This document shows, in pieces, positions 15,590-43,497 of a stretch of 47,153 bases of DNA; within the stretch, counting starts at the first letter, position 1; every line of letters starts with the position of its first letter. The stretch is from a virus. Taxonomy: Duplodnaviria; Caudoviricetes. Both the position numbers and the translations under genes were made by a program. Under the pieces are notes generated by a model. That model had not been told where the DNA came from and did not search any database. It saw only the letters and a list, made by a program, of their open reading frames with translations. The stretch spans positions 1 to 47,153 of the IMG/VR virus record IMGVR_UViG_3300030372_004498; one strand, 5' to 3'.

Positions 15590-16297
15590 ATGGCTAAACC
15601 CAAGCGTATATGTTCAATCCCAGAATGCGGCAATCCGCACTTTGGAAAATCTTTCTGCCAAAAACACTACCAGCGCCTACGCTTCCACGGCGACCCACTG
15701 TACGAGCGCCCCAAGCGCTCCCCCGCAAAGTGCTCAGTCGAAGGATGCGACCATCCGGTTTACGGCTTGGGGTGGTGCAGCAAGCATTACAGTCGTCACT
15801 ACCGACATGGCTCCCCTTTAGAAGGGGGCACAGAAATTGGCCAACCACTTGAATGGCTAAATGAGCACACTTCGCATTCAGGCGACAAATGCTTGATATG
15901 GCCATTCTCAGCCCGAAATGATGGTTACGGAAAGCTATGGCTTGACGGGAGGCTTGAGGTCGCAAGCCGCGCAATGTGCGAGAAGGTTAATGGCCCACCC
16001 CCGACGCCAGAACACCATGCGGCCCATTCCTGCGGCAAAGGGCACGATGGCTGCGTAAATCCAAAGCACCTCTACTGGGCGACACCAAAGCAGAACGCAC
16101 GTGACAAGATCACGCACGGCACATCCAATCGCGGAGAGCGGCATGGAAACGCCAAATTGACTCGCGATGCCGTGACCGACATTCGGTCAAATACCACAGA
16201 CAGCAAAGATCAGCTTGCGGCAAAATATGGCGTCACACGCACCACCGTAAACGACGTGATAGCCGGTCGCAGATGGAAGTGGCTTTTGGAGCCGTAG
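15590..16297 (+). CDS. Free-standing HNH homing endonuclease
   Basis: Two CS..EC......G.C.KHY.R zinc-finger repeats, HSC......CVNPKHL.WAT..QN HNH core, C-terminal HTH; opposite strand within the head operon. Confidence 0.9.
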   Translation: MAKPKRICSIPECGNPHFGKSFCQKHYQRLRFHGDPLYERPKRSPAKCSVEGCDHPVYGLGWCSKHYSRHYRHGSPLEGGTEIGQPLEWLNEHTSHSGDKCLIWPFSARNDGYGKLWLDGRLEVASRAMCEKVNGPPPTPEHHAAHSCGKGHDGCVNPKHLYWATPKQNARDKITHGTSNRGERHGNAKLTRDAVTDIRSNTTDSKDQLAAKYGVTRTTVNDVIAGRRWKWLLEP

Positions 16298-22855: not shown

Positions 22856-23512
22856 ATCGTGTCGCCTCAGTTATTGGAGGTTGTGGGCTTCCCGCCCGTG
22901 GTGCGTATCGCCGCCGCGTTGCGCCTATGTGCGCTGAGAAAATGACCGGGCCCCATATGGCCTATATCGCCACATTTTGCCGCTAATGGCCTTATTTTAT
23001 TGACGCAAAGGGCCGGGCCCCAAATGACCCGCGCATGTCCGAGGCCGTAGCCAAGTGCAGAGGCGCGTGTCGTATGGTGGGGTATCCGGCTCATGGCTTG
23101 GGATAGCGGCCTTGCGTTCGCCCCGTTGCTGCCTTTGCCCAAGCGGTTCATAGCAGCGAATGTGTTTGAACGCGCCCCGGCGAGCTTATGCTACTGACGC
23201 TTGCCGGGTTATCATGCTGCCACATGGGGTAATGCCAGACGCGCTCTGGAGACGCCACTAACTTGCAAGTTTCAGTCGAGCTTCCCGACCTAGTGACGCC
23301 ACCAGAAAGCGGCTTAGAAAGCGCGGGGCGATGATTAAAGACCTTCGCTCTTACTATCGGGACGGTCAGGCGAGTCCGCGCCATAATCACAAAAGGCAGC
23401 ATTCCCGCCACCTCTTGCGATAAATCACACTCCCACGTTTAAGAGGTGCAGTCAACCCCGCGCGCGCGATTATGCGATTCTTTGTCGTCGGTCAATTGGC
23501 TCAGAAAGCCTC

Positions 23513-23665
23513 CTATTTGGACTGACCGGAAGGAACCCACACATACAGGGCAGGTCCACCGCGATACGCCCAGAACTCGAAACCGCCGCGCACCCACGCA
23601 AATCGCCGGAAGGGGCACTGCGGTCGGGTGAGGCGACGAATGTACTTAACTTTTCTGCCAAACAT
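23513..23665 (-). CDS. Small hypothetical protein flanked by cassette-junction repeats (50 aa)
   Basis: AGGAG SD; MFGRKVKYIRR...SGQSK; both flanks carry CCARATAGGAG. Confidence 0.65.
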   Translation of the reverse strand: MFGRKVKYIRRLTRPQCPFRRFAWVRGGFEFWAYRGGPALYVWVPSGQSK

Positions 23666-23675
23666 GCCTTCGCTC

Positions 23676-24230
23676 CTATCTGGCCTTCCGCTCCAACTTA
23701 TCCGCCAGCCGATCAAGCGCCGCTGCCAGATGCTCTTTCCCCTTCGGCACCGCCTTGTAGCGATACTCGCGCAGATGGGCCACAGCGCGGCCCTCACAGG
23801 CCACCGCCTGCAAGATTGCCTTGTCCTCTGCCGCGACCAGCTTAGACACGCTGAGATAGGCGCTCATGCGGTCTATGCGTATATCAATCGCTTGGTCCGG
23901 CTTGGGGCTGCTGTCCACTACGGGGTCGCTGTAGTCCTTGCCCTGCCCCATTTCGGTCTTGGCCCATGCATCGCGCAGTGTCGCCCCGGCAGTTAGCTGG
24001 CGATTATCAATCACCCCGTCCTTGTGGTACTTCTGGAGCATGTCCACCCGGCGCATCCGCTTTACGTTGTTGGGGTTCACCTGCTCGCCCTTTTCGTTTG
24101 TCCACGTCACAGGCTCTTGCACGAGGTGAAGGCGGTTTGCCGGACCCCGTGCGCCCATGTCCCAATGCTCAGGCATCGCGGCCACTGTCACGGGCGTTTT
24201 CTTCTGTGCTGCCTTCTTACGTCTCGCCAT
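23676..24230 (-). CDS. DUF6456-like late transcriptional regulator (Q/GafZ-like antiterminator)
   Basis: DML..YH..G.ID.RQ..AG..LR..W...L..V.CEG...L..ALDRLA pattern; position at the end of the early operon, upstream of terS. Confidence 0.7.
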   Translation of the reverse strand: MARRKKAAQKKTPVTVAAMPEHWDMGARGPANRLHLVQEPVTWTNEKGEQVNPNNVKRMRRVDMLQKYHKDGVIDNRQLTAGATLRDAWAKTEMGQGKDYSDPVVDSSPKPDQAIDIRIDRMSAYLSVSKLVAAEDKAILQAVACEGRAVAHLREYRYKAVPKGKEHLAAALDRLADKLERKAR

Positions 24231-34044: not shown

Positions 34045-34247
34045 AAGACCTGCCCCCCAACCGCACGTTTGGCCGCCGTGACGCCTTCCACAGCATAGCC
34101 CTACAGCCGCTCGAATGGATCACCAAGAGCCTGCGCATGGGTGATGGCTGGGACTTGGCCGAACTGACGCCCTTTGTGAACCGCTGCCGCGCTCTGGTGG
34201 CCGCATATGACGCCCGCATTGAAGCGGCGCAGGAGGAAAGCAAATGA
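34041..34247 (+). CDS. Hypothetical protein
   Basis: ATGA-coupled. Confidence 0.65.
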   Translation: MKDLPPNRTFGRRDAFHSIALQPLEWITKSLRMGDGWDLAELTPFVNRCRALVAAYDARIEAAQEESK

Positions 34248-34900
34248 ACTGGGAAACCGTAACCGAACAACTCAAAGCCCCGCTTGATCCGAAAGCTATC
34301 AAGCCGCCGCCACAAGGCAAGTACGGCGAGTATGTGGACGGGCTGCACGTGATCCGTGAGGCCAACCGCATCTTCGGCTTTAACGGCTGGTCTTATACCG
34401 TCGAACGGCTGGAGCGGACGCACTATGGCGAGGTCGAATTGAAGGGCCGCGACGGGCCATATACGCAGCTTCGTTGCTCCTACCTCTGCGCCGTTCGCGT
34501 CAACGTCGATGGCGTAACCCGCGAAGGGCTGGCCGTGGGCGTTGGCAACGGCAAGCCGGAGAACGCAGGCGACGTGATCGAAAGCGCCGTGAAAGAGGCC
34601 GAGACAGACGCGCTTAAACGCGCGCTTCGCAGCTTCGGCAACACATTCGGACTAGCTCTCTATGACAAAGACAAGAGCGCCCGCGAGGTCGGCACCCCGT
34701 TTGACGCAACGGAGAACCGCGACCGGATGCTTGCGGCAATCAACAGGCAAACCAACCCCGACGAACTGGACGGGCTTTGGAAGCACAAGGCGTTTACCGC
34801 GACTTTCGCCAAGCTACCCGAACCGATGCAGCACGAACTTAACGCTGCATACACAGCCCGCATGGGCGCAATCACCGAAGAAGAAAAGGACGCCGCATAA
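34244..34900 (+). CDS. sak: Sak (Rad52/22-family) single-strand annealing protein
   Basis: YVDG.HVI.EANRIFGFNGWS, REG...G.G, A.KEAETDALKRALR.FGN.FGL.LYDK. Confidence 0.92.
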   Translation: MNWETVTEQLKAPLDPKAIKPPPQGKYGEYVDGLHVIREANRIFGFNGWSYTVERLERTHYGEVELKGRDGPYTQLRCSYLCAVRVNVDGVTREGLAVGVGNGKPENAGDVIESAVKEAETDALKRALRSFGNTFGLALYDKDKSAREVGTPFDATENRDRMLAAINRQTNPDELDGLWKHKAFTATFAKLPEPMQHELNAAYTARMGAITEEEKDAA

Positions 34901-35325: not shown

Positions 35326-35901
35326 ATGGCTATCGAACAGATAACCCCCAGGGGGGATGATTCACAACATCTCGGAACCGAAATCTGGAAACCTGTGCCA
35401 AGTGAGCCGGGGGTTCTGGCAAGTTCGTGGGGTAGAGTCCTGCTGGCACCGGGTTATGCGCCCCTGCCAAATGGAGGGTTTCGACTTTACGCGCCGGAGC
35501 CTCGGCTTGGGAATGTTTCGAAATCTTCGAAGACAGCGCGACATGAATACAGGCTTGTCATGGTGAAAAGGTATGACGATCACCGGAGGCAAGCGCCGCG
35601 AAAGGTTCACCAGCTTGTTTGCGAGGCGTTCCATGGCCCTAAACCCTTTGAGACTGCGGTTGTTATCCACAAGGATGAAGACGCTCTAAACAATCGCCCC
35701 GAAAACCTCAAATGGGGCACCCAGAAAGAGAACCTGAACGCGCCGAAGTTCAAGGCATCCAAGCTAAAGGCCCCTCTAATCAAAAGGTGCATTCATTGCG
35801 GGTCGGACTTCCGCCGCAGGGATAAGGCGCAAAAATACTGCTCAAGCAAATGCTACGGGGCATCAAATCGAAAGTCTGGGGTCGCCCCTGAATGGCGGTG
35901 A
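35326..35901 (+). CDS. NUMOD4-HNH homing endonuclease
   Basis: EIWKPVP.....LASS.GRV (NUMOD4); VHQLV.EAFHGP......H.D....NN..ENL.WGT.KEN; C-terminal C..CG...KYCS..C. Confidence 0.9.
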   Translation: MAIEQITPRGDDSQHLGTEIWKPVPSEPGVLASSWGRVLLAPGYAPLPNGGFRLYAPEPRLGNVSKSSKTARHEYRLVMVKRYDDHRRQAPRKVHQLVCEAFHGPKPFETAVVIHKDEDALNNRPENLKWGTQKENLNAPKFKASKLKAPLIKRCIHCGSDFRRRDKAQKYCSSKCYGASNRKSGVAPEWR

Positions 35902-37413: not shown

Positions 37414-37781
37414 CCGTGGATATTTCAAGCGAGGCGTTTGATTGGAAAGCCGCATGGCACGCGCTGGACGAAGAACACCGCGCCCAAGCCGAGCGCATCA
37501 AGGAGCTGGAGCTAAGTCTTAGTGTTTCAACAGAGGAGGCCGTTTTATGGTTTGACGTGGCACAGCGCAAAACCGCTAAAGCTAGAATCGCCCGCAATGA
37601 CGCGCTGCGGGAGGCGGCTCAGCATATCCGAGACCATGCCGAAGTCGCCCGCAAGAAAATGCGTGAGGCATATGAGCTTGGTTCTAGGGATATAGCCAGC
37701 ACATGGAGCGCGATCATTTCACACCTAGACATCGAAGTAGATGCAATCCTCGCCCTTATCGAAGGAGCTACCAATGACTGA
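37410..37781 (+). CDS. Hypothetical protein
   Basis: 123 aa; RNDALREAA motif common in phage early genes. Confidence 0.7.
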   Translation: MTVDISSEAFDWKAAWHALDEEHRAQAERIKELELSLSVSTEEAVLWFDVAQRKTAKARIARNDALREAAQHIRDHAEVARKKMREAYELGSRDIASTWSAIISHLDIEVDAILALIEGATND

Positions 37782-38139
37782 GCAAGTAGAGCGTGATGGG
37801 TATGACCAGTTTTGGGACGTAGTGGAATCTGCGCCGGTGCATCAAGGGCATATCGCGCAACCGATAGATGCCCTTCGATCAGCTTGGCTGGTTCGTGACT
37901 TGACGGAGGATGACTTCCGCGCAGCCCGCGCCGCTATCGCCGCCCTTACCGTGACACCGCAGGAGGCGGCGAAGGTGCGGGAAGCCGTAGGCGAGCAAGC
38001 AACCGAAGTGAACCGAGCGTTCATAATCGCCGCCAACGCAAGACCAGCGGGCGGACCGCAGGCAATCTATGAGGTCGAGTTAATATTGGAGCGGGCCGTG
38101 AAAGCCTTACGCGCTATCTCGGAGGACAGCCATGAGTAA
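37774..38139 (+). CDS. Hypothetical protein
   Basis: GAAGGAG SD before ATG 37774. Confidence 0.7.
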   Translation: MTEQVERDGYDQFWDVVESAPVHQGHIAQPIDALRSAWLVRDLTEDDFRAARAAIAALTVTPQEAAKVREAVGEQATEVNRAFIIAANARPAGGPQAIYEVELILERAVKALRAISEDSHE

Positions 38140-38458
38140 CGCACTAGACGGCTATGATGCGAGTGAATACCACCGCCTGAACATGCAGGTTGCGCGGGTA
38201 ACTGGAGCCAAGGCTGCCGTCGATCAGGCTCTTGAGCGGGCGCGAGAGATAAAGAGCATCCCGAAGTGGATGATCCGGTATCTTGAGAGCGCAGCAGAAC
38301 GATTGCCTGGCCTTTCCACAGACCTAGCCACGTTGCGGGATGGGTGCTGCGATGCTGAAATATGGAAGCCAAGACCCGCCGTTCGCTGTGAGCATTGCGG
38401 GGCCATTACGGGCCACCATCTGCGATGCCCGAACTTGAAGGAGGGGAAGGACGCATGA
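38132..38458 (+). CDS. Hypothetical protein
   Basis: GGAGG SD; C-terminal CEHCG...H...CP. Confidence 0.7.
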   Translation: MSNALDGYDASEYHRLNMQVARVTGAKAAVDQALERAREIKSIPKWMIRYLESAAERLPGLSTDLATLRDGCCDAEIWKPRPAVRCEHCGAITGHHLRCPNLKEGKDA

Positions 38459-38555
38459 CCGACGAAGACCGCAAACGCATTCTGCGCGAGTTAGCCCGTG
38501 CCAAAGCTGCATTCCAGCTTCGCACGATCCGCGCCGTTATTTAGGAGGGGAAACC

Positions 38556-38765
38556 ATGCCAGCAAGACTGATGAAAATTCACGACGCCGCAACCTATCTT
38601 GGCATGAGCGTCACCAAGCTAAAGTCAAAGGGGCTACCCGTTCGCCGGGATGGCGGCAACGTCCTGTATGACCGTCTCGACCTTGACGATTACGCGAACA
38701 ACCTGCCGTATGATGGCAAAAAGCAGACGGGGAGCGTCGAAGAATGGCAAAAGGCGTTCGACTAA
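38556..38765 (+). CDS. xis: Excisionase-like HTH protein
   Basis: RLM...DAA.YLG.S......G.....GG.VLYDR.DLD; overlaps int. Confidence 0.8.
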   Translation: MPARLMKIHDAATYLGMSVTKLKSKGLPVRRDGGNVLYDRLDLDDYANNLPYDGKKQTGSVEEWQKAFD

Positions 38766-39775
38766 AGGGCATCAAGGTTGTCACCAAGCCCAACGGCAAG
38801 CGATACGTTTACCGCCGCGTAAGGGGGCAATTCGTATCTCTGCCGGACCTACCGGAGAACCACCCCGACTTTCTGCGGGCATATGTGGACGCCGAGCATT
38901 ACGCCCCGACTGACGGAACGCTCGCCAGCACGATTAAGCTATTCATTGCCTCAAACGACTTCAAACAGCGCAAGGAAAGCACCCGCAAGGTATGGCGGCG
39001 CAGGCTGGAGAAGATCGCCATGCAGTACGGCACATCGCCTATCGACAAGCTGACGACTGATCTAGTCAACAAGGCTATTCGGAAAGTATCACCCGGCGCA
39101 CAGCGGGGGGAGCGCACAATCTGGCGGGCTATCTTTGCCTTTGCACAGTCTGAGTTCCTACGCAGTGACAACCCGGCCAAGGATGCGATGATAGGCAAGA
39201 CAAAGGCCGTACCGCACGGCACATGGACACCGGATGATGTGGCGGTGTTTCGCGCCCGCTGGCCCGTAGGGACACCAGAGCGCCAAGCGTTCGAGGTGAT
39301 CTATTGGACCGCCGCCCGGTGCATTGATGCCGCCGTGATAGGCTGGCAGCACGTCAGCGACGGCGTACTGGAGTTTGTACAGGAGAAAACCGGGGGAACG
39401 GCTGTTGTGCCAATCACCGCGCCCGTAGCGCCGTATCTGGAGAATGACAGGCGCATGTTCCTAGAGGCCGCGTCACCTGACCTGCTGTTCATCCTCACAA
39501 GCACAGGCAAGGGCCGATCTGTGAAGGCTCTAAGCCAGTTCGTAAGCCGCGCTGCGCGTGATGCTGGCCTAGAGAACCGCACCGCCCATGGGCTGCGCCG
39601 CGCCCGCGCCGTTGTGCTGGCTGAGAACGGCTGGACACCTCACCAGATTGGCGCATGGACGGGGCATGAATCCTTGGCCGAGGTCAGCCATTACACCCGC
39701 GATGCGAACAAACGGAGCATGGTTGTTGGAAACCACGTTGGAAACTCCGGCAATGTGAAGCGGTTTCCGTCATAA
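38744..39775 (+). CDS. int: Tyrosine integrase
   Basis: TAAR..D, QEKTG, HGLRR, GH, HYT catalytic residues. Confidence 0.95.
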   Translation: MAKGVRLKGIKVVTKPNGKRYVYRRVRGQFVSLPDLPENHPDFLRAYVDAEHYAPTDGTLASTIKLFIASNDFKQRKESTRKVWRRRLEKIAMQYGTSPIDKLTTDLVNKAIRKVSPGAQRGERTIWRAIFAFAQSEFLRSDNPAKDAMIGKTKAVPHGTWTPDDVAVFRARWPVGTPERQAFEVIYWTAARCIDAAVIGWQHVSDGVLEFVQEKTGGTAVVPITAPVAPYLENDRRMFLEAASPDLLFILTSTGKGRSVKALSQFVSRAARDAGLENRTAHGLRRARAVVLAENGWTPHQIGAWTGHESLAEVSHYTRDANKRSMVVGNHVGNSGNVKRFPS

Positions 39776-39910: not shown

Positions 39911-40081
39911 TTAGTCCGAAACCCGCTTGATGCCGTGAGTGTCTTGAAGTTCATACGCCACGTTATGATCCCCCTCCCACTCGCCAGCCTCAAACTTGGC
40001 CCACGCTTCTTCTTCGGTTTCAGCCTCAACTGTCACCAGATCAGATGCGATGTATGTTGCCTTAATCTCAAATTCGGCCAT
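39911..40081 (-). CDS. Small acidic protein (56 aa, not in ORF track)
   Basis: MAEFEIKATY...VEAETEEEAW; ATAGGAG SD. Confidence 0.75.
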   Translation of the reverse strand: MAEFEIKATYIASDLVTVEAETEEEAWAKFEAGEWEGDHNVAYELQDTHGIKRVSD

Positions 40082-40115
40082 GTCTATCTCCTATGTTGAG
40101 GGGGGCTTAGCCCTC

Positions 40116-40349
40116 CTATGTGGACTTGAAGCGGGCGAGATAAGCCCAAGCTTCATCAAGTTGATCATCATCAAGCCGCAGCGCGGCCAGAGCCTCCACC
40201 AGCGCCCGCGCCTCTTTGGTCATCCGCTTCGGTGGCTTTGGGCATTGGCAATCCGCATGGTCTCCGCCGACAGCCCGGCTCCAACAGCCCGGCACGAGAA
40301 ACTTCCCGCCCGGAACATCATCAGCCTTATGCCACCGACAAACCTGCAA
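40116..40349 (-). CDS. Cassette hypothetical protein (TTG start)
   Basis: AGGAG 7 nt before TTG; CRW....PGC......DC.C. Confidence 0.7.
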   Translation of the reverse strand: MQVCRWHKADDVPGGKFLVPGCWSRAVGGDHADCQCPKPPKRMTKEARALVEALAALRLDDDQLDEAWAYLARFKST

Positions 40350-40359
40350 ACCCGCGCTC

Positions 40360-40611
40360 CTATTCAGACTCGCCAGTAAGGCCGGTAGCCATCGCGGCAT
40401 CCCACCCGTCGTTGTGGCCAAGAACGTAGCAGCGATCTGACTTGAACCGCTCAATCGCGCGCGCCTGCTCTTTCAGCTTGTCGCTCACTTGATCGAGGAT
40501 GTGCGCGTGCAACCCCATTGCGGCCAGCCCTTCACGCATCTTGTGCAGGTCTTGGCACATGACGCGCACTGCCGCGTCCTTGGGATTGTGCATTTCAACT
40601 GTATCAGCCAT
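40360..40611 (-). CDS. Cassette hypothetical protein
   Basis: 83 aa; AGGAG SD. Confidence 0.75.
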   Translation of the reverse strand: MADTVEMHNPKDAAVRVMCQDLHKMREGLAAMGLHAHILDQVSDKLKEQARAIERFKSDRCYVLGHNDGWDAAMATGLTGESE

Positions 40612-40620
40612 CGCTTTCTC

Positions 40621-40881
40621 CTATTCAGACTCACGGCGCGCGCGGGTCATGCGCGCCAATTCCTTCATTGTGACCTCGACCGCGCCAGCCTCAACGGCAA
40701 GCGCCCGCTTTGACATGGCTATGTCGAAATGCTCCCGCGCTGTTCCCGCGCTCTGTATCCACTTGCGCGCGACACCGATCCGGTCGGCCATTGCTAGCAA
40801 TTCCTCGGTGCTATCCGCTATCATGTGGCACATTTTCATCCGTCCGAACTGCGCCTGCATGTTGTCGACATAAACCGCCAT
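40621..40881 (-). CDS. DUF4031 family protein
   Basis: MAVYVD......GRM.MCHMIADS.EEL.AMA.RIG..R.W.Q......HFDI..SKR..AV..GA. Confidence 0.85.
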   Translation of the reverse strand: MAVYVDNMQAQFGRMKMCHMIADSTEELLAMADRIGVARKWIQSAGTAREHFDIAMSKRALAVEAGAVEVTMKELARMTRARRESE

Positions 40882-40891
40882 CGCCATTCTC

Positions 40892-41086
40892 CTATCTGGA
40901 CTCGGCGCTGTCGAGAAAATCGACGTGCGCGCCCTTCTTCGTCACCACGCAATCCGAAGCCCGCGCGCGGCACGGTGGCCACCCCGCAGGCTCAACAAAT
41001 TCGCCGGCCCCATCGGTTCCTGCACGCAGAACAACCCAGTCCTCACCTGTCGGCTTGTGATGGACCTCATCGCCTCGCTCAATCAT
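40892..41086 (-). CDS. Cassette hypothetical protein
   Basis: GD.V.H.PTGE.WVV...GWP......SDC; AGGAGG SD. Confidence 0.75.
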   Translation of the reverse strand: MIERGDEVHHKPTGEDWVVLRAGTDGAGEFVEPAGWPPCRARASDCVVTKKGAHVDFLDSAESR

Positions 41087-41096
41087 ACTGCACCTC

Positions 41097-41891
41097 CTAT
41101 TTGGATTTAGGTTTCATCGATAGGATACGCGCCGCCGCTTCGGGGCTTACATCCTCGACCATCCGCGCCGCTTGCTCGATGAACGCGCCAGCGTGAGGCT
41201 CTACCACCCGCTTATTATGGGCGGGGTTCTCGAAGTATATCGCCACGCGTTCAGCCGCCAACGCCTCGCGCATGGTGCCGTAATACTCGACATCAACGCG
41301 CGCGCTGTCCGGCCACCAATCTGACTGGCTTTTGTGCTGCTGTTCGCGGGTCCGATGATTGATGCAGGCACCCACATAGAGTAGCGCACCATCTGCATCG
41401 AAATGCCGATAAACGCATGGGCGGCGATCCGGCAGCGGCGGGCCTTGAACCTCGACCACCTTCTTGCGTTTGCGCTTCTTGCCAACGCGACGGCTCTCCG
41501 AGACGTGAAAGACATTTTGGCGGCGCGCGACCTCGGCCACGAAAGCCGCTTCGTCTTCGGGCGTGGTGATCTCTCCGCCGCCGACCACAAGGCGAACCTC
41601 CTGCTCCGCCACTGCGTCAATCAGCCAGCGCGCGTCGTTCTTTGACACGGCGGCGCAGAACTCGGAATGAACGTGGATTTCATCACCCGGCAGCGCGGCG
41701 AAAAGAAGATCGTTGCGCCCGACCAACTGGTTTTGAGGGCGGGTCGATCCACGCGAAATATCATCTTCCCAGATCGGCCCGAACTGGTCGTCAGAGACGC
41801 CGGAAGCGACCAAATGCGCTATCTGATCCTTGCGAGAAGGACGCCCCGGCGCGGCGAGGATGTAGCCCCACTTTATGGATTCACCGACCAT
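41097..41891 (-). CDS. Degenerate resolvase-fold domain fused to a GIY-YIG nuclease
   Basis: N-terminus aligns to the resolvase pattern (GY...S...Q...L...G...IWED..S...R..LL...PGD.I.V) without the RVS/DRL residues; C-terminal VYR.FD....LLYVG......R..QH...AE..AI..ENP.HN. Confidence 0.75.
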   Translation of the reverse strand: MVGESIKWGYILAAPGRPSRKDQIAHLVASGVSDDQFGPIWEDDISRGSTRPQNQLVGRNDLLFAALPGDEIHVHSEFCAAVSKNDARWLIDAVAEQEVRLVVGGGEITTPEDEAAFVAEVARRQNVFHVSESRRVGKKRKRKKVVEVQGPPLPDRRPCVYRHFDADGALLYVGACINHRTREQQHKSQSDWWPDSARVDVEYYGTMREALAAERVAIYFENPAHNKRVVEPHAGAFIEQAARMVEDVSPEAAARILSMKPKSK

Positions 41892-41895
41892 CTTC

Positions 41896-42099
41896 TTAAC
41901 ACCCCTCGGCGTCGGGGGGTGTCTGATCACCTTCTTTCATCGGGCCATTTTGCCCCGCCAAGAACTGGCGAAGCGCGGCGACGATCACCGCAGACCGCGA
42001 AGGCGGCACGGGTTGCTGGGCGATCCATGCGTCCAAATCCGCAAGCAGATCGGGCGGCAGGGTCGTGTTCACGGGTTTGTTTATACGCGGCATATTCAT
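41896..42099 (-). CDS. CopG/RHH transcriptional regulator
   Basis: VNTTLPPDLLADLDAW......SRSAVI..ALRQFL. Confidence 0.85.
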   Translation of the reverse strand: MNMPRINKPVNTTLPPDLLADLDAWIAQQPVPPSRSAVIVAALRQFLAGQNGPMKEGDQTPPDAEGC

Positions 42100-42106
42100 G
42101 CCTTTA

Positions 42107-42182
42107 CCGATAGCGCACACACAAAGCAACGTCAACACTTGTGCGCACACATGTTGACGAGTGCGCACACATCGGCTAGAAA
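42107..42182. promoter_or_regulatory. Back-to-back promoters with GCGCACACA operator repeats
   Basis: Plus TTGACG(42154)-17-TAGAAA; minus TTGACG(42135)-17-TATCGG; GCGCACACA at 42113, 42143, 42163; GTCAACA/TGTTGAC inverted repeat. Confidence 0.75.
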
Positions 42183-42213
42183 GGGTGCAAATCCACCAAT
42201 CCCCGGAGGCACC

Positions 42214-42405
42214 ATGGCAGAGGAAACGTACAGCACAGACGGGCCGGAATGCCCCTACTGCGGCCACCAGCACCAGCCGAGCGAAGACCCCGGCCACTAT
42301 TACAACGAGGGCAATGACAGCAGCACATGCGAAAGCTGCGACAAGGACTTCAAAATGTCGGTCTATGTCTCGCACTCTTGGACCTGCGAAACCTTTGACG
42401 ACTGA
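42214..42405 (+). CDS. Small zinc-ribbon protein
   Basis: CPYCG...CESC.K.F; GGAGG SD. Confidence 0.8.
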   Translation: MAEETYSTDGPECPYCGHQHQPSEDPGHYYNEGNDSSTCESCDKDFKMSVYVSHSWTCETFDD

Positions 42406-42429
42406 ATCCAACAATCCCCGGAGGCACCC

Positions 42430-42630
42430 ATGAAGATCAACGCGGATACGGCAGAGGGCGGCGGGCGCGTCGAAGTTGAAGCCACAGAGGATGGCAACGT
42501 CCTCCTCTCATGGCTCGCTGCGGACGGCGAAACGTTTCGCTGGTGGAAGCTCGGCGCAGAGCAAGCCGACCACCTCGGCGACATCATCAAGAACCACGCA
42601 CGGAAGGCGGCGGAAGCCGCGTCCAGCTAA
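42430..42630 (+). CDS. Cassette hypothetical protein
   Basis: 66 aa; GGAGG SD. Confidence 0.75.
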   Translation: MKINADTAEGGGRVEVEATEDGNVLLSWLAADGETFRWWKLGAEQADHLGDIIKNHARKAAEAASS

Positions 42631-42644
42631 CCCCGGAGGCCGAT

Positions 42645-42953
42645 ATGATTTCAAATATCAGCGAAAAGATAGGGCCAGCGCGCAAGCCGCACCGCTGCGA
42701 AGAATGCGGGCGCACGATCCCGAAGGGCGAGGTTTATCTGCGCCAAGTCAACGCGGACGGAGCGCAGGTTTGGACATTTAAGGCTCATACAGATTGCGCC
42801 GAGTTGGGCGTTGCCTACCGGACAAAGCATAGGCTGTGGGACGAATACGATTGGCTTCCGATGTATGAACTCGCGGACGACGACCACCTCTTAGGCCAGT
42901 GGCGAGGGCGCTATCCTCACGCCGTTTGTCGCCTCGAATTTAACCAGTCCTAA
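42645..42953 (+). CDS. Cassette zinc-binding protein
   Basis: ARK.H.C.EC...I.KGE.Y.......H..C motif; GGAGG SD. Confidence 0.8.
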   Translation: MISNISEKIGPARKPHRCEECGRTIPKGEVYLRQVNADGAQVWTFKAHTDCAELGVAYRTKHRLWDEYDWLPMYELADDDHLLGQWRGRYPHAVCRLEFNQS

Positions 42954-42970
42954 AAACCCCCGGAGGCACT

Positions 42971-43207
42971 ATGACCGACCTAGATATAATCAAAGCCCTG
43001 CAAGACGGGGACCGACCCACCTTCGGCATCCATGGCCGAAACATGGAGGTTATGGGCCTAATGTCGCGGATGGAGGAAGCGGGGCTGATAAGTACCGACG
43101 ACGCCAGCCTGTCGCAAGAAACCCGCCGCCGCGCGATATGGGTTGCAGAGGACCGGCGCGGGGAACAGCCCGCGTCAATTCTCGCGTCCCTGTCGCAATC
43201 CAACTAA
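42971..43207 (+). CDS. Cassette hypothetical (winged-helix-like) protein
   Basis: 78 aa; GGAGG SD. Confidence 0.75.
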   Translation: MTDLDIIKALQDGDRPTFGIHGRNMEVMGLMSRMEEAGLISTDDASLSQETRRRAIWVAEDRRGEQPASILASLSQSN

Positions 43208-43228
43208 CCCCCATCACAGGAGCCACAC

Positions 43229-43497
43229 ATGACTGAGACAGCACCGGAACGGATATGGGCGACACATAGCGAGACGTGGGCGCTGTTGAGTTGGGGCAAT
43301 GGGCTGACACAGTTCGCCATAAAGGCGGAACCGAATACGTCCGCGCCGATCTGCTGGATGATGCGGTGAAGGCGCTGGAACGTGCGCTTGATTGGGCAGC
43401 ATGTCACCGCGACCACCCCGGCACGATCAACCATAATGCAATTCTGTTTGACCTAGAAGCGCGGGAAGTCCTCGCCAAGCTAAGGAGCAAGCCATGA
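43229..43497 (+). pseudogene. Frameshifted APERIW...EYVRADL-type phage gene
   Basis: MTETAPERIWATHS in one frame, GQW...TEYVRADL in another; shift near 43270. Confidence 0.6.

Follow-up and report, generated by a model that had tools for sequence, protein, structure and literature searches.

A probable cassette boundary made of stop codon and ribosome site in alphaproteobacterial temperate phages, and a candidate recombinase

How phages gain and reorder tiny accessory genes while expression remains unbroken is a long-standing question. "Boundary sequences" have already been proposed for phage gene exchange; to our knowledge, few of them come with a candidate enzyme. Integrons comprise the tyrosine recombinase IntI, the attI site, and attC cassettes, and their recombinase gene lies beside promoterless one-gene cassettes; integron arrays without the enzyme are known as CALINs. 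The PeSLs of T4-type phages are described, in the accessible part of Arbiol et al. (2010; PMC2839356), as promoter–terminator units of about 100 bp. The SAS of Cluster K mycobacteriophages are proposed to act in translation, and the accessible part of Pope et al. (2011; PMC3203893) mentions no link to exchange or to a recombinase. The sites of DNA invertases consist of 12-bp halves ending in AACC and a 2-bp center, followed by GG (Table 3 of PMC3241671, a paper accessible in part).

The DNA analyzed here, a complete temperate-phage record of 47,153 bp with direct terminal repeats (hereafter the window), contains an island of small genes in two divergent arms (Table 1). The island works like an integron or a PeSL array yet lacks defining features of either of them, and also of SAS and invertase systems. 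It resembles integrons in that relatives of the phage carry a recombinase gene beside promoterless one-gene cassettes, each with a 3' site and in shuffled order, and in the presence of duplicated and non-coding cassettes and of enzyme-less arrays (like CALINs). By contrast, there is no IntI-type tyrosine recombinase at the array, and the adjoining enzyme of the relatives is a small serine recombinase; the junctions are stop–SD sites of 20–25 bp without an attC-like long hairpin (nine of nine behave like shuffled sequences), and the cassettes form two divergent arms carried by a phage. The intact enzyme of the relatives, which is not encoded in the window genome, is closest to Gin, one of the Hin/Gin/Cin/Pin/Min invertases, and the right junctions share TC...AACC-nn-GG with hix and gix halves (according to the accessible parts of PMC3241671 and PMC3985619). 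However, 26-bp near-palindromic inverted sites are absent; a single conserved half occurs in direct repeats along each arm, its spacing varies by 1 nt, and the outcome is gain, loss, or replacement rather than inversion.

Like PeSLs, as far as the accessible text of PMC2839356 describes them, the junctions are repeats that separate non-essential genes and where individual ORFs come and go, but they are only 20–25 bp long, overlap coding ends, and are tied to a recombinase. An excess of PeSL-type promoters or terminators was not found at the junctions (promoter-like, 3 vs 1.8 expected, one of them overlapping junction 2; terminator-like, 1 vs 4.5). With SAS, the junctions have in common a short asymmetric ATAGGAG repeat in a single orientation just before the starts of non-structural genes; by contrast, ATAGGAG is all that they share with the 13-bp SAS consensus, and the 17-bp inverted ESAS repeats are missing (both as given in the accessible part of PMC3203893), and the conserved part lies 5' of the SD and moves with the upstream gene.

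The same divergent island, with junction motifs and a DUF4031 gene, is present in a cultured phage, Aurantimonas phage AmM-1 (AB967974, genes 36–44). Its central gene encodes a non-catalytic resolvase-fold protein with 35% identity to that of the window, but a repressor gene and a GIY-YIG fusion are missing from the center. In AB967974, genes 36–44 are almost all hypothetical, and the island is not annotated as a system. No account of this island turned up in a search of the literature that was limited to main texts, with few subscription papers among them. Boundary, swaps, and a candidate recombinase are all identifiable here, and AmM-1 offers a cultured phage with the island.

Junctions in the window and in related phages

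All copies of the junction motif reported for the left arm in an earlier note on this DNA are confirmed at the minus-strand positions given there, as are the last residues of the five upstream ORFs, KSK, ESR, ESE, ESE, and KST before the stop. Its statement that every gene of the left array ends in the motif holds for five of six genes; the last one (39911–40081) ends in RVSD, without the motif. A scan of the window for TCYRNATAGGAG with at most one mismatch yielded nine matches vs 1.18 expected, a number reached in none of 100 shuffles: six in the left arm, two around a 50-aa ORF at 23.5 kb, and one isolated on the plus strand. The exact matches (six) are all on the minus strand, and a backwards control gave none. 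The consensus of the core is RTCYRRMWR, after which the ribosome site of the next gene follows.

Table 1. Features of the island and other genes of the window (L, loci in relatives; E, E-value).
Feature	Position	Strand	Remarks
Left junction 1	41094..41107	-	Core + TAG + GGAG; left boundary of conserved island center; relatives diverge at 41094
Left cassette 1	40892..41086	-	64 aa, no family
Left junction 2	40889..40903	-	Motif scan
Left cassette 2	40621..40887	-	DUF4031, PF13223 (E 3e-26)
Left junction 3	40618..40632	-	Start of identity to L008/L219
Left cassette 3	40360..40611	-	83 aa; 99% identical copy in L008/L219 with other neighbors
Left junction 4	40357..40371	-	Relatives rejoin window inside, at 40361; end of L219 identity
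Left cassette 4	40116..40349	-	77 aa, TTG start at 40349; homolog in L188
Left junction 5	40113..40127	-	Motif scan
Left-arm end piece	40088..40112	-	Conserved, own SD
Last left-arm gene	39911..40081	-	56 aa; no motif at end; replaced in relatives
Central protein	41097..41891	-	264 aa; resolvase-fold N-terminal domain + GIY-YIG-like endonuclease domain
Small repressor-like protein	41896..42099	-	67 aa; phrog_4738 transcriptional repressor (E 2e-4); weak YlcI/YnfO match
Divergent intergenic region	42100..42190	.	Repeated GCGCACAC palindromes; no tandem core
Right junction 1	42191..42208	+	Core + CCCC + GGAG; right boundary of conserved center; relatives diverge at 42204
Right arm	42214..43211	+	Cassettes of 63, 66, 102, 78 aa; junctions 42406, 42621, 42947, 43198
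Outlying cassette	23510..23686	-	50-aa ORF (23513-23665) between two junction copies, after 184-aa gene
Rad52-family single-strand annealing protein	34244..34900	+	PF04098 (E 7e-30)
HNH endonuclease gene	35326-35901		Among early genes; PF13392
Tyrosine integrase	38744-39775		Generic phage integrase

A search for relatives of the 64-aa gene of the first left cassette found none. Because the fifth gene of the left arm encodes 77 aa from the TTG at 40349, there is no non-coding gap at this point. The last two motif copies, which are 25 bp apart, had been taken for an empty or deleted cassette, an interpretation that is not supported. The same 25-bp piece recurs in L028/L142 with a different cassette before it and a different gene after it, and relatives in the public runs X5, X7, and X9 match the window through the piece to position 40079; it is therefore a conserved arm end.

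Beyond the view of the earlier note are the right arm, which belongs to the same system, the copies at 23.5 kb, and the intact serine recombinase of the relatives. The divergent right arm is punctuated (42191–43211) by a sister motif, RTCCWVMWRWCCCCGGAGG, which has the same core followed by CCCC-GGAGG, and its 63- and 102-aa cassettes recur in changed order in L188. The outlying junction copies (23510–23521 and 23673–23684) are outside the array; a homolog of the 50-aa ORF between them is located in the left arm of L139, and the X5 relative diverges from the window at 23671, by the outlying cassette. Downstream of the right arm, overlapping ORFs of 46 and 73 aa (43229–43497) correspond to a single 89-aa gene in the L142 relative, a possible frameshift; the lysis genes begin at 44.1 kb. 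The early small-gene run at 37750–38460 has other conserved junctions (one, for example, ending in KEGKDA before the stop), which are common to relatives as 20–40-bp matches although the genes differ.

The conservation of the 7–8 nt upstream of the stop had been ascribed to a signal in the nucleic acid, and this reading is borne out. The motif falls into three reading frames or outside genes altogether, and cargo homologs away from arrays have other ends, which points to a DNA-level signal. Comparison of the sequences thus supports a core that would be explained neither by SD function nor by a protein tail. The survey comprised 183 array sites in 37 loci; in the 136 sites with a called gene end, the stop is at +10 (75 sites), +7 (20), 0 (12), +1 (11), +6 (8), +9 (5), or earlier (5), and the other 47 have no called gene end. 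Since the site pattern requires TCY, a count of serine codons would be circular and was not used. The tail also depends on location in an array, a point raised in the earlier note: the non-array DUF4031 homologs of the phages LagS-V1, D3, and Rb1 end otherwise, and the fourth homolog from a cultured phage, that of AmM-1, belongs to an array, with a junction that is degenerate. In the 83-aa family, five loci show ends of the junction type, and two loci outside arrays (L011/L012) show ATGA overlaps.

A C-terminal tag of the proteins is ruled out by the stop frames and by the different tails outside arrays, and a CcrM site was rejected with GANTC in only 46 of 176 sites. Pairing of the core with the 3' end of 16S rRNA would be out of register. 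In five other phage records, all 19 exact matches of the left motif are inside arrays (control, 0). Among the 45 matches of one search for relatives, most are lone matches in unrelated taxa, and 99 of the 106 loci in one locus search are singletons, mostly due to chance.

That the core is a translation signal like the SAS of mycobacteriophages, coupling termination to re-initiation, perhaps via a 3-bp UCY/GGA hairpin over the SD, is highly improbable. The junctions do contain AGGAG at the starts of non-structural genes, as SAS do, and the 3-bp stem appears in several predicted folds, but the nine junctions of the window fold no better than shuffles (z from -0.4 to +1.8 with RNA parameters). 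Moreover, there are cores that lack an SD, upstream of the recombinase gene, and cores that no gene follows, at arm ends (L219, L218, L225, and position 23510 of the window), and the core is linked to the gene before it, not to the gene after it.

Exchange of cassettes at the junctions

The motif is very probably real, widespread in this group of marine phages, and a true cassette boundary. The units between the motifs behave as the cassettes that the earlier note had taken them for: they are replaced and reordered among relatives. The center of the island (41094–42204; 1.1 kb) is common to four public runs from four studies, with two differences (99.8% identity) in X7 and X9, and is matched in pieces in X5 and X6. 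In all four runs, three left cassettes (732 bp, 41094 to 40361) are replaced by 195 other letters, and other cargo is present beyond 42204, inside the first right junction. Because the four runs apparently contain one allele seen four times, they were counted as one event.

In L219, identity to the 83-aa cassette is 99% over the whole stretch bounded by its two junctions; the flanks are unrelated, and the copy lies between scaffold and capsid genes. The list of gene families whose flanks vary has 31 entries, largely array cargo. In L173 and L222, cassettes are duplicated within the arrays, and one of the duplicates is non-coding; an Rfam search of the two loci gave no match. A non-coding unit of about 200 bp is found twice, as a cassette, in L026 (880–1100 and 1500–1710), in an array that is shared with L222 and whose other genes are AT-richer than this unit. 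The evidence for exchange comes from assembled contigs, among which no cassette circles were seen. A joint in X2 that "goes back 348" was considered as a cassette circle; it is ambiguous, could be a whole-genome unitig, and was not counted.

Comparison of homologous genes with different neighbors locates the exchange more closely. The core after the gene exceeds the background (0.81 vs 0.62; 18 non-independent pairs, p 5e-6), as does the SD spacer before the gene (0.67 vs 0.45; 16 non-independent pairs, p 1e-4). The core before the gene is likewise above background, more weakly (0.74 vs 0.62; pairs again non-independent, p 0.008). Each core thus mostly accompanies the gene that precedes it, and each SD spacer the gene that follows, suggesting that most crossovers occur between core and SD spacer. 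Breaks off that position lie within the core (L143/L173; a loose end at 42950 in X2) or at the ATG (L145/L153, 97–99% identical).

Such a spread of breakpoints, from -3 to the ATG, and the enrichment of the core also before the gene would be expected if the junctions were homology linkers, the main rival to a recombinase acting on them. According to this explanation, which we regard as unlikely, a short stop–SD–start repeat is recombined rarely by RecA or phage annealing proteins, as in the PeSLs of T4-type phages (a precedent documented in the accessible part of PMC2839356); common junctions would have spread as their genes move more, and the recombinase gene would be a passenger and local regulator. 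It is favored further by cargo that varies beside non-catalytic or absent recombinases, by the Rad52-family protein of this phage and a RecT in the phage record G807, and by other junction families in small-gene runs (L244; the short matches at 37.7–38.5 kb). However, the exact identity between junctions (median, 7–9 nt) is far shorter than the 23–27 nt quoted for Red-beta in the accessible part of PMC3945230, and exact matches of at least 23 nt are rare (among pairs between loci, 2 of 2913 for left junctions and 22 of 4967 for right ones). In addition, the phage records G802, G803, and G806 are without Rad52, RecT, and ERF, the three annealing families searched.

Recombinase genes and putative half-sites

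In many relatives, the central slot of the island is occupied by an intact serine recombinase with catalytic residues invariant in 17 of 17 aligned sequences and Gin as the best PDB match (E 5e-38). The 264-aa protein in the same slot of the window has an N-terminal domain whose predicted fold (pLDDT 85) matches that of gamma-delta resolvase (1zr2; E 1.7e-6, TM 0.75), but it lacks the catalytic R-x-S motif, with GYILAA aligned where active enzymes have GYARVS. It also matches a PHROG endonuclease (E 7e-19), and a Pfam match to GIY-YIG is below the cut-off. The putative kinship of the non-catalytic central proteins with the intact recombinases rests on the predicted fold; comparing the profiles of the non-catalytic family and the intact clade gave no significant match (probability 0.4%). 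The same slot is filled elsewhere (L028/L142, L139, L021, L031, AmM1_42) by resolvase-like proteins of at least two families, which are non-catalytic and have no C-terminal HTH. The adjacent 67-aa protein of the window is probably of the ribbon-helix-helix type, and the GCGCACAC palindromes next to it appear operator-like. A second, putative HNH-like ORF of the window (15590–16297) is on the strand opposite to the head genes.

A search of the window genome found no intact recombinase. It is likewise absent from the phage record G001 and, of five other array records, from all but one, which has only a weak partial match. A blind draw of 401 genomes of the G001 family contained three with the recombinase, all three with adjoining arrays; the right motif is present in seven of the 401 (control, 0), in two of them at recombinase loci. 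A larger set of homologs, seeded from a recombinase that had been found via the motif and including near-copies, was reduced from 107 loci to 63 that are distinct and sufficiently complete by dropping short, late-starting, and identical matches; the tallies were made by hand and the tree is a quick one. At least two outward sites within 1.5 kb accompany 25 of the 31 homologs with at least 54% identity vs 1 of the 32 below, and five of the six exceptions among the close homologs have less than 400 bp of downstream flank. The sites of close homologs are oriented outward in 93 cases and inward in 2, vs 4 and 5 for distant ones. A tandem core upstream of the recombinase gene is found in 20 of 31 close vs 3 of 32 distant homologs; these cores have no SD, and some loci also possess a mirror pair facing the other arm. 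Neither this association of recombinase and arrays nor the SD-less tandem cores are explained by repeats recombined through homology.

In 12 of the 20 cases, the tandem core stands directly behind a TTG hexamer, and a -10-like hexamer comes 17 nt later. This placement, the asymmetry of a core oriented with transcription (93 vs 2), and the precedent of stoperators (in the accessible part of PMC9283540) would fit a core that is bound at the promoter and at each gene boundary by the DNA-binding domain of the recombinase or by another repressor, which silences the arms, with exchange as a by-product. Such an operator role is quite unlikely, given that the catalytic residues of the recombinase are kept, that tandem cores remain where the TTG hexamer is lost (L218, L251, L212, L181), and that cores remain where the central protein has no C-terminal HTH (L021, AmM1_42).

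Right junctions (core-CC-CC-GG) fit the inner CC-nn-GG of hix and gix sites in 36 of 104 strict cases, and one junction of L258 is exactly the left half of hixL; left junctions read core-GG-AG. Because the site pattern requires TC and a nearby GGAG, part of this likeness is built in. The spacing of the inner GG is variable, at +14 in 53 of 104 right sites, and the GGAG of left sites is at +9 in 47 and at +10 in 32. As judged from the sequences, a single conserved half per site and a varying spacing would speak against a recombinase, unlike the rigid 26-bp sites of invertases.

That the junctions are recombinase-recognized half-sites for cassette exchange, used in trans in the phage of the window, is the best single reading, at about even odds. 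In this scheme, a Gin-like serine recombinase would bind the core as a half-site and, with a cut immediately 3' of it, release cassettes or insert them; such binding is suggested by the tandem core pair upstream of its gene, often over a likely promoter. The crossover would take place at a 2-bp center (right arms, CC; left arms, AG) some 12–13 nt after the core begins, and the different centers would keep the cassette pools of the two arms apart. Excised cassettes would be circles. As a stop codon and an SD come with every site, an inserted cassette would be expressed immediately from the central divergent promoters. Neither candidate enzyme, recombinase or annealing protein, is encoded in cis everywhere. 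The cargo differs despite the lack of a recombinase in the window, G001, and four array records, which calls for action either in trans or through homology. Co-resident prophages that encode the enzyme may be the source of new cassettes for phages whose recombinase is non-catalytic or missing, and homology-driven exchange may add some more.

What this analysis adds is the clade of intact Gin-like recombinases, with their tandem cores, and the geometry of the putative half-sites. Taken together as a platform for gene capture that resembles integrons but relies on a Gin-type serine recombinase in alphaproteobacterial temperate phages, with one-sided stop-codon/ribosome sites, arms separated by central dinucleotides, anti-defense cargo, and non-catalytic phages that use the pool in trans, the proposal is tentative and somewhat doubtful. 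If exchange by the recombinase is true, the island would be a phage counterpart of bacterial integrons, and a recombinase acting on one-sided sites would be of interest as a tool.

A member of the intact clade was not found among cultured phages; one match with 49% identity is on a Phaeobacter plasmid. In one recombinase subclade (L258, L260), the recognition helix differs in sequence, and the cores are of the TGAAA type, upstream as well as within the arrays, a possible co-variation. The recombinase of L244 (5666–7544) is more distant, and the array after it has another type of junction, its genes ending in xEGE before the stop; in L236/L243, co-directional arrays lie upstream.

Cargo and distribution

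Through the motif, a pool of over 130 small proteins comes into view; most are unknown, and only 12 of the 128 scanned have any Pfam match. The first cassette after the intact recombinase in L274 (5625–6170) matches the CBASS inhibitor Acb3 (PF25187, E 5e-23). This match suggests that the arrays may carry anti-defense genes, for which the small-protein pool would be a focused place to look.

Relatives are present in Salipiger, Sulfitobacter, Thioclava, Phaeobacter, Brevirhabdus, a MAG of Hyphomonadaceae, and phage AmM-1. The island or single cassettes occur in very different phage backbones (L007, L008/L219, L010, L013): some adjoin lysis genes, others lie between scaffold and capsid genes or separate two large genes of the head region.
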